A DNA stretch of 47,741 bases, taken from IMG/VR virus record IMGVR_UViG_3300011008_000125, one strand, 5' to 3'. This DNA comes from a virus. This document shows positions 36,873 through 37,574 of this stretch, piece after piece. The position numbers and the translations under genes were made by a program. Position 1 is the first letter of the stretch. Every line of letters starts with the position of its first letter. The notes beneath the pieces were generated by a model. It was not told where the DNA came from and made no database searches. It worked only from the letters and a program-made list of their open reading frames with translations.

Positions 36873-37574
36873 TCACCCCCATTGTTCAGCCATTGCTTTG
36901 GCAACACCCGGAAAGGTTTTGCTTCTTGCAATGCTTCCTTCTGCAAACTTCTGACCTTTATAATTCGGACGTTCCAACCGACCACCGCCGCCATTGATGA
37001 ACGGGTGATAATCCTGAACCATTTCTGTTGGTTCCAACGCTGGAAGCCCCTTCAGCCACAAACACGTTTTCTTTGAATATGGATCACCAAACATGTAAGG
37101 CTGTATAACCTGATCTGCTTTAGGTAACATGTACACACTCATTGGAACCGGGTTTTCTACCGCAACCCTTTCACAGTTGGCGTGAAGGAATAACATGAAG
37201 AAATCCCTTGCAAGTATTCCAAGCTTCAACCGTTCCACATTCACCATCTGAAAAGTTCCATATGGCGGATATTCCCTGATTTCCTTGCGGAACATTCTGA
37301 CCGCACCGCCGTTTGTCAGGTATGTGCAAGGTGGGTGTGCAATGATTAAGTCCCACATTTTCACGGTGTGTGTGTGTGTGTGTGTGTGTGTGTGTGTGTC
37401 AGCAGTCCTGAATTCACAGTTGCCGTTCAGAAGCGGCAGCACATCCCCTTGAATGTGCCATTCCGGGTGTGATCCGCTGCAACCTTGAAGGTCACAGCTG
37501 TATGCTTCATGACCACGTGCGCGGAATTCCTTGCAGACCGCCTGTGATTCTTCACAGGCAACCAGTACCTTCAT
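36873..37574 (-). CDS. C5-cytosine DNA methyltransferase-like protein containing a (Thr-His)n tract
   Basis: AHPPCTYL is motif IV-like (PC), VAVENPV is ENV-like and the C-terminus is RSKTFPGVAKAMAEQW. The THTHTHTHTHT tract is encoded by (AC)17. Confidence 0.55.
   Translation of the reverse strand: MKVLVACEESQAVCKEFRARGHEAYSCDLQGCSGSHPEWHIQGDVLPLLNGNCEFRTADTHTHTHTHTHTVKMWDLIIAHPPCTYLTNGGAVRMFRKEIREYPPYGTFQMVNVERLKLGILARDFFMLFLHANCERVAVENPVPMSVYMLPKADQVIQPYMFGDPYSKKTCLWLKGLPALEPTEMVQDYHPFINGGGGRLERPNYKGQKFAEGSIARSKTFPGVAKAMAEQWG
37366..37399. repeat. Perfect dinucleotide microsatellite (GT)17 on plus, (AC)17 on the coding strand
   Basis: Counted directly: 34 nt from g37366 to t37399. Confidence 0.95.

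Follow-up and report, generated by a model that had tools for sequence, protein, structure and literature searches.

Analysis of the IMG/VR virus record IMGVR_UViG_3300011008_000125 (47,741 nucleotides; the whole stretch is referred to here as the window) centered on a perfect (AC)17 dinucleotide tract at positions 37366 to 37399, which is located within a minus-strand open reading frame (36873 to 37574) whose 233-amino-acid product resembles C5-cytosine methyltransferases. This tract probably represents a slippage-prone contingency locus, situated in a dispensable surface hairpin of an early phage gene, since alleles of the window's own lineage and of more distant sister lineages differ in their number of AC units and are distributed between in-frame (ON) and out-of-frame (OFF) states of a gene which is otherwise intact.

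Position of the tract and consequences of unit changes

The tract reads as (GT)17 on the plus strand and (AC)17 on the minus (coding) strand, and Tandem Repeats Finder reports positions 37366 to 37399 as an array of period 2 with 17.0 copies and 100% matches. The 47.7-kb window contains no other dinucleotide array of at least five units, and the length of the tract far exceeds chance: the 12 overlapping (AC)6 hits of the window were matched by no dinucleotide-preserving shuffle, the chance expectation of (AC)6 being 0.04 per shuffle. Within the encoded protein, the tract occupies codons 59 to 71 and specifies the Thr-His block T60 to T70 (THTHTHTHTHT), which precedes a Pro-Pro-Cys motif at residues 81 to 83 by approximately 10 codons.

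In-silico editing of the tract produced a full-length protein at 14, 17, and 20 units and an OFF state at other counts. The addition of one unit leads to an immediate stop (..THTP*) at a latent TGA directly 3′ of the tract (37361 to 37363, minus strand), which is also in frame after the loss of two units and limits the product to approximately 70 amino acids. The removal of one unit (or the gain of two) instead opens a 61-codon out-of-frame tail (37171 to 37356, minus strand), which contains ...RENVGLNHCTPTLHIPDKRRCGQ... and terminates at the stop codon at 37171 to 37173. Both outcomes have counterparts among relatives of the window, as contigs L185, L186, L187, and L189 (27 or 12 units) stop at the TGA equivalent to 37361 to 37363, while the same out-of-frame tail is translated in the 7-unit relatives L182, L183, and L190. 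Furthermore, when the predicted frameshifted product served as a protein query, dozens of distinct truncated database proteins were retrieved in which ...DTHTHT is followed by the out-of-frame tail. The repeat thus lies inside the reading frame, and changes in unit number shift that frame, as is characteristic of a contingency locus. An earlier note on this DNA had described the perfect repeat, the Thr-His peptide some 10 codons ahead of the Pro-Pro-Cys motif, and the rule that changes of one or two units truncate the protein while changes of three retain the frame, all of which is borne out by the sequence reading, Tandem Repeats Finder, and the in-silico editing.

Tract length in the window's own lineage

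Relatives of the window were found via the 90%-identity protein cluster containing the window protein, whose members comprise full-length proteins of 229 and 231 amino acids together with C-terminal fragments of 124 to 174 amino acids. The resulting set of 15 contigs, including the window, displays gene flanks that are 92 to 100% identical to those of the window (ungapped), and the 14 relatives derive from 14 different sample accessions. Tract length across this set ranges from 7 to 27 units. ON alleles carry 8 units (L002, L003, and L004), 11 units (L001), 11 units plus an interrupted extension equivalent to 14 units (L188), or 17 units (the window and L005), whereas OFF alleles carry 7 units (L182, L183, and L190), 12 units (L186, L187, and L189), 13 units (L184), or 27 units (L185), giving seven ON and eight OFF alleles in this cluster-derived set. 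The in-frame lengths (8, 11, 14-equivalent, and 17) accordingly advance in steps of three units. Outside the tract, L190 (7 units) and L185 (27 units) are 99.4 to 99.6% identical to the window, and the C-terminal frame is intact as far as ...AKAMAEQWG in all eight OFF alleles. As the OFF fragments are internal to their contigs, truncation at a contig edge is ruled out as their origin.

Sister lineages surveyed irrespective of frame

For lineages other than that of the window, alleles were collected with a frame-independent DNA pattern consisting of at least four AC units, a gap, and degenerate codons of WD.I.AHPPCT, which was applied to IMG/VR, GTDB genomes, and JGI metagenomes. In each of the 59 unique alleles obtained, the frame was deduced from how far an upstream anchor (EWH) lies from the downstream one. 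This distance was 93 nt, corresponding to ON, in 37 alleles, and 91 nt (16 alleles), 89 nt (3 alleles), or 95 nt (3 alleles) in the remainder, all of which are OFF. Consequently, 22 of the 59 AC-tract alleles (37%) are out of frame, and every shift is a multiple of 2 nt, that is, of whole AC units. In each OFF allele whose 3′ end is present on the contig, an open C-terminal frame of 133 to 184 codons follows, and the conserved C-terminal ...AKAMAEQW(G) motif is visibly reached in all of these but L128.

The closest comparison is provided by a twin pair from different samples, L103 with (AC)9 in the ON state and L094 with (AC)8 in the OFF state. One AC unit separates the two; otherwise, the 177 nt compared on the upstream side are identical, and the 432 nt on the downstream side are 99.8% identical. 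In a second pair, L145 and L148, identity across the 3′ part of the gene is 98%. For most OFF alleles, identity to the nearest ON allele is no higher than 65 to 88%, which points to many independent switches. The ON share of 37/59 is above the neutral one-third (p = 4e-6), and this excess is indicative of selection for an expressible gene, with frequent tolerance of the OFF state. Four alleles have interrupted tracts of at most five pure units, and all of these are ON. Length polymorphism was therefore found in the form expected of a contingency locus, with alleles both in and out of frame while the remainder of the gene is intact. The comparison of tract lengths proposed in the earlier note was strongly positive for the window's relatives and gave a consistent outcome in the sister lineages.

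Controls and further repeats in the same hairpin

Homologous viral loci without an AC tract were frameshifted in 4 of 80 cases, each at a homopolymer: L007 at G10 in the same hairpin, L046 at G7 near residue 213, and L080 and L082 at C9 at nt 482, where C8 relatives are in frame. Frameshifts of the hairpin were thus present in 22/59 AC-tract alleles versus 0/79 controls (Fisher p = 5e-10).

The hairpin also harbors repeats of other types. A frame-blind scan upstream of the downstream anchor detected poly-G at the hairpin tip, where G7 is ON, G8 is represented by one ON and one OFF allele, and G9 to G10 are all OFF, the C-terminal frames being open in all of these poly-G alleles. At the hairpin base, G7 and G13 alleles form an in-frame pair. 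A third type, (CAGA)5, encodes KTDRQTDR at the hairpin tip, and both of its viral-contig alleles are ON; (CAGA)-type relatives include in-frame proteins with QTDRQTDR and one frameshifted database protein. That three unrelated repeat types occupy a single dispensable loop is difficult to account for other than by selection for switchability or, at least, by a strongly favored landing site.

Codon usage bears on the level at which the AC repeat is maintained. Within the Thr-His block, Thr is encoded by ACA in 107/111 cases and His by CAC in 79/79, compared to 38% and 48%, respectively, elsewhere in the same genes, a contrast which is inflated by the requirement of the search pattern for four AC units. 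Typical AC tracts are nevertheless 7 to 9 units long, and the codon usage favors upkeep of the repeat at the DNA level rather than selection acting on the peptide.

As a separate observation, the IMG/VR contigs L015, L016, L080, and L082 carry many G8 to G10 and C8 to C9 tracts across several genes, which recalls the poly-G-rich Campylobacter phages.

Family, fold, and motifs of the methylase-like protein

The 233-amino-acid product of the ON frame matches PHROG 757 (phrog_757; "DNA methyltransferase," a predicted name) end to end with an E value of 7e-53. Its AlphaFold2 model has a mean predicted local distance difference test score (pLDDT) of 85.5 and a predicted template modeling score (pTM) of 0.83, residues ~190 to 215 forming a low-confidence Gly-rich loop. 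All of the top 50 PDB matches retrieved with this model by Foldseek are C5-methyltransferases (E ~1e-4 overall; 1dct, E = 7e-5, probability 1.0), among them M.HaeIII, DNMT3A/B, M.HhaI, and the Cp-933R prophage enzyme, and the matches in the viral structure library BFVD are small phage "cytosine methylases." Across 76 sequences, residues P81, C83, E140, N141, and P142 show no variation; they correspond to motifs IV and VI, the latter reading ENP (residues 140 to 142) rather than ENV. Similar to the cytosine-5 DNA methyltransferases of PF00145 (M.HhaI, M.HaeIII, Dcm, and DNMT3), the modeled protein exhibits a Rossmann fold, an N-terminal strand-helix-strand order, the Pro-Cys and Glu-Asn motifs, and a C-terminal helix. 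The assignment as C5-methyltransferase-like is therefore supported by the predicted catalytic-domain fold together with these motifs, and cytosine could plausibly undergo a covalent, Cys-dependent reaction.

The family is large, with more than 8,000 word-sharing matches and, in an exhaustive search, 4,328 clusters (50% identity, E ≤ 1e-3). Homologues, for which only predicted names are available, are present in cultured phages of Vibrio, Flavobacterium, Cellulophaga, Pelagibacter, Acinetobacter, and others, including a 50%-identical homologue in a [Clostridium] scindens phage. Those of 212 to 216 amino acids lack the hairpin entirely, from which it follows that the hairpin is dispensable and constitutes a permissive site. 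Pfam scans of longer homologues yielded one informative case, P0271 (547 amino acids), which is fused to a PAPS_reduct domain. Two further family members, H28 and H31, are from pig feces and lie on GenBank contigs labeled Microviridae and Inovirus, the Microviridae record matching at two separate places. Over residues 1 to 64, many AC-tract homologues (L086 to L158) share ~80% identity with the window protein, compared to 40 to 50% over the C-terminal two-thirds, a drop which is suggestive of mosaicism or recombination around the hairpin.

Proposed mechanism and its alternatives

Based on these comparisons, it is proposed that slipped-strand mispairing during replication would add or remove AC units, such that counts leaving a remainder of two on division by three (8, 11, 14, 17, and 20) would yield a full-length protein varying in the length of its Thr-His loop alone, while the remaining counts would cause truncation ahead of the catalytic Pro-Cys and Glu-Asn motifs. 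From established knowledge of dinucleotide tracts, such slippage would be expected to be frequent, reversible, and increasingly common with tract length, and the ON allele of the window, being unusually long, is presumably very unstable. Because the gene is located in an early lytic operon, ON lineages would modify replicating phage DNA and OFF lineages would not. The former would be protected from restriction of unmodified DNA and exposed to modification-dependent nucleases, the reverse applying to the latter, and the phage population would thereby hedge between hosts that cut unmodified DNA and hosts that cut modified DNA. Heterogeneous protection of progeny DNA, as put forward in the earlier note, and a phasevarion-type influence on host gene expression are conjectural. 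We infer reversibility within one population from the known behavior of such tracts, the chemistry of the enzyme from its fold and motifs, and the benefit of switching by analogy with known systems.

A number of observations weigh against this interpretation. The ON:OFF ratio of 7:8 in the window lineage is biased as a frequency, as the alleles were found through a protein cluster; the census of sister lineages admitted only tracts of at least four AC units; and the alleles compared are assembled consensus sequences from different samples. The selective advantage of switching is argued by analogy, and the two fragments encoded by an OFF allele might still be partly functional. Regarding the protein, searches of Pfam and NCBIfam returned no family at E ≤ 0.1, PF00145 included, phmmer and profile searches against the PDB produced no link to solved C5-methyltransferases, and hhalign of the family alignment against Escherichia coli Dcm gave a probability of 0.6% and no link. 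Owing to these negative sequence-level searches, membership among the methyltransferases is carried by fold and motifs. The Foldseek template modeling scores are modest (0.40 to 0.45), and strand 1 is joined to helix 1 by the invariant, glycine-free A6-C7-E8-E9-S10-Q11 in place of the FxGxG S-adenosylmethionine loop. Moreover, no separate target-recognition domain is evident within a protein of 228 to 233 amino acids. The earlier note's designation of the gene as C5-methyltransferase-like consequently stands with respect to the fold and the Pro-Cys and Glu-Asn motifs, and falls short with respect to the Pfam and NCBIfam matches and the missing cofactor motif I. Methyl transfer by this protein is putative, and we hold its identity as an ordinary 5-methylcytosine methyltransferase with less confidence than the operation of the repeat as a switch.

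The alternative which best withstands these data, although an unlikely one, is that the tract is a neutral microsatellite in an insertion-tolerant loop and that OFF alleles mark a dispensable accessory gene which decaying or indifferent phages are losing in the ordinary way, rather than one state of an evolved, reversible switch. Such an explanation draws on the dispensability of the hairpin and the accessory nature of the gene, on the occurrence in many phage genes of short repeats without proven function, and on the fact that the alleles compared are assembled sequences. It does not readily account for OFF alleles that bear no second lesion and retain open C-terminal frames of 133 to 184 codons, for the enrichment of ON above the neutral one-third, for three unrelated repeat types in one loop, for the upkeep of a pure tract across lineages only 65 to 85% identical in nucleotides, or for ON/OFF twins one unit apart.

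Far less probable is selection of the Thr-His repeat as a peptide, namely a metal-binding or spacer loop that tunes activity or specificity, with the DNA repeat as a by-product. Metal binding by His-rich loops is possible. While the DTHTHT motif is conserved in diverged homologues and in-frame variants span 5 to 11 residues, the ACA/CAC codon bias of the block speaks against such selection (a contrast partly inflated by the four-unit search pattern), as does the finding that most homologues possess unrelated residues or no hairpin at this position, and frameshifted alleles are common, which would be unexpected under selection at the protein level.

Of marginally lower probability again is the view that frameshifted alleles are still expressed, as two complementing fragments or through recoding, in which case the tract would modulate rather than switch the enzyme. 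Naturally split C5-methyltransferases offer a parallel, and fragment complementation is reported for M.SssI (PMC3404938); in addition, gene calling in the 7-unit alleles starts a C-terminal open reading frame (P0265) at a GTG that precedes the tract, and an in-frame ATG (TGAAAATG) comes after the latent TGA of the window. Such restart codons lack conservation, however, as relatives read VKTW and have no ATG, and the break would fall inside the N-terminal Rossmann half, ahead of motif IV. Neither a slippery site nor a stimulatory structure was seen, no dedicated search having been made.

Finally, it is scarcely credible that tract length, or the frameshifts of relatives, are sequencing or assembly artifacts of a difficult repeat: although dinucleotide repeats stutter in libraries based on polymerase chain reaction and several relatives are short, low-coverage contigs, the separately assembled L005 (ERZ3810914) likewise has 17 units, the same OFF lengths recur in separate samples (7 units in three and 12 units in three), differences extend to 20 units, far beyond stutter, and repeat-free homologues processed by the same pipelines are nearly free of frameshifts.

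Beyond the proposed contingency locus of the window, a broader scenario may be envisaged, which we regard as tentative and on balance doubtful. According to this scenario, hypermutable repeats of the (AC)n, poly-G, and (CAGA)n types would have arisen many times over, each time independently, in one dispensable hairpin of the family, switching would be a widespread, selected form of bet-hedging in temperate phages of gut and rumen Clostridia, and the cytosine modification would perhaps be non-canonical and not 5-methylcytosine. The latter suggestion may follow from the retention of the Pro-Cys and Glu-Asn motifs alongside the replacement of the S-adenosylmethionine loop by ACEESQ.

Relation to known systems and significance

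Levinson and Gutman reportedly observed in 1987 that poly-CA/TG carried by phage M13 undergoes frequent 2-bp slippage frameshifts in bacteria. The locus described here shares with that system a CA/GT dinucleotide tract on phage DNA and differs in being a tract that occurs naturally in a tailed temperate phage, inside a functional gene, as opposed to an engineered reporter in a filamentous coliphage.

Repeat-based contingency loci of phages, homopolymers of T-even phages among them, have only recently been reported. In T2, which offers the closest analogy, a homopolymer contingency locus in the DNA-glucosylation gene agt toggles glucosylation and allows escape from TgvAB (Gomez, Barrick and Waters, bioRxiv 10.1101/2025.10.21.683753), and Campylobacter phages carry hypermutable poly-G tracts (Sorensen et al. 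2021, as cited in PMC12823448). The present locus resembles these systems in being a phage-borne coding-sequence repeat associated with frameshifts, which are reversible and give rise to mixed progeny in the known systems. T2 agt, whose OFF state evades modification-dependent defense, is a DNA-modification gene, as the present gene would be. In contrast to the homopolymers of 6 to 10 nt in those phages, the repeat is a 17-unit dinucleotide tract; it resides in a methyltransferase-like gene of a temperate phage whose nearest assigned relatives are from Clostridia; three repeat types occur in one loop across a very large family; and switching is deduced from comparison. What is new relative to the phage contingency loci is therefore the long dinucleotide repeat, the methyltransferase-like target, and the family-wide convergence on one loop.

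A second point of reference is the bacterial phasevarion, in which Type III mod or Type I hsd methyltransferases are phase variable, as described for Haemophilus, Neisseria, Helicobacter, Moraxella, and Streptococcus suis (PMC5909438, PMC7383803, and PMC8125046). Common to both are a simple repeat in a DNA methyltransferase open reading frame, ON/OFF control by frameshift, and a tract length that varies between strains. Phasevarion methyltransferases are chromosomal N6-adenine restriction-modification enzymes which control host regulons, and their repeats are mostly tetra- or pentanucleotides or homopolymers, whereas the window harbors an orphan, phage-borne C5-methyltransferase-like gene in an early lytic operon, with no restriction partner. 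The locus thus works like a phasevarion switch and is not a member of the phasevarions, being an orphan, C5-like, and located in a phage lytic operon. It likewise departs from the cytosine-5 DNA methyltransferases proper, as there is no PF00145 match, ACEESQ stands for FxGxG, and its 228 to 233 amino acids include no recognizable target-recognition domain. A phage-borne, repeat-switched methyltransferase was not found in a full-text literature search or in recent reviews, the coverage of the literature being incomplete.

The locus accordingly unites phase-variable methyltransferases, which are well known in bacteria, with the repeat contingency loci of phages, and the comparative data indicate that both ON and OFF are common in nature. 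If the enzyme modifies phage DNA, the repeat would offer a simple heritable way to keep modified and unmodified lineages, ready for classical and modification-dependent restriction alike. From a practical perspective, gene callers split OFF genes, resulting in under-annotation in viromes, and methylome-based host linking of such phages may differ between samples. The abundance of this uncharacterized family and its unusual motif I render it a worthwhile biochemical target.

Phage genome and gene neighborhood

A 99-nt direct repeat is identical at window positions 1 to 99 and 47643 to 47741, and the window is, therefore, a circular assembly of 47,642 bp. It encodes an integrase (42095 to 43114, plus strand), a CI-like helix-turn-helix protein (41034 to 41462, plus strand), a holin, and a CHAP/choline-binding endolysin, while the strand opposite the integrase carries a long leftward operon that includes a D5-type primase, an SNF2 helicase, and an HD-domain protein. 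The window is thus a temperate phage genome, and the methylase-like gene, which sits in the leftward early operon, is phage-borne, in agreement with the setting envisaged by the earlier note. In the GTDB scan, related loci were detected in only two metagenome-assembled genomes (MAGs) of Clostridia, one a Clostridia MAG from deer cecum and the other a Congzhengia MAG. Megablast of positions 36600 to 38100 against GenBank phages produced no match, nor did the exact left-flank pattern in IMG/VR.

The immediate upstream neighbor of the methylase-like gene is a helix-turn-helix (XRE-type) gene (37571 to 38014, minus strand; Pfam HTH_3 and HTH_31) whose TGA overlaps the methylase-like ATG as ATGA. 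Downstream is a zinc-ribbon gene (36695 to 36871, minus strand) of ~58 amino acids with an NrdR-like N-terminal ribbon (Pfam Zn_ribbon_NrdR, E = 1.6e-10), the ATG of which lies 1 nt past the methylase-like stop codon (TGAAATG). This close spacing makes translational coupling of the zinc-ribbon gene to the methylase-like gene possible in the window, as had been suggested previously for the NrdR-like gene. A double-CxxC zinc-ribbon open reading frame is present downstream in only 9/127 family loci, however, and a role as an obligate partner or coupled target across the family was rejected; as the neighbor is not conserved, it was left out of the proposed mechanism. No restriction or specificity subunit adjoins the methylase-like gene, its flanks being the helix-turn-helix and zinc-ribbon genes. 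Approximately 1 kb upstream of it, the early operon encodes a DarA_C ("defense against restriction") domain protein (38456 to 38677, minus strand; PF18789, E = 1.3e-16), which also neighbors the locus in relatives L188, L189, and L190 and suggests, on the basis of gene content, a counter-restriction module.

Other regions of the window display further sources of variation. A protein with DUF7666 and Pentapeptide_2 domains (35509 to 36708, minus strand) contains an array of ~37 tandem 15-nt units (35862 to 36424; NTGNR/NTGDC...). L182, L183, and L188, all closely related to the window, lack its gene, and contig L005 ends in a break within that gene; it may, therefore, be a recent insertion of variable length. 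A complete diversity-generating retroelement is located at 45715 to 47727 (minus strand), with its reverse transcriptase at 45715 to 46923. The template repeat (47213 to 47100) and variable repeat (47459 to 47346) comprise 114 nt each, and all 24 mismatches between them correspond to A in the template. The variable repeat lies at the 3′ end of an open reading frame at 47290 to 47727, which runs on across the circular junction. Lastly, homopolymers are present at 41019 to 41027, 27658 to 27665, 23926 to 23933, and 41950 to 41958, C8 and A9 tracts being among them, and these may represent additional hypermutable sites. One C8 tract (G8 on the coding strand) is situated at the extreme 5′ end of the primase open reading frame, and the G9 at 41019 to 41027 ends 7 nt before the start of the CI-like repressor gene at 41034.

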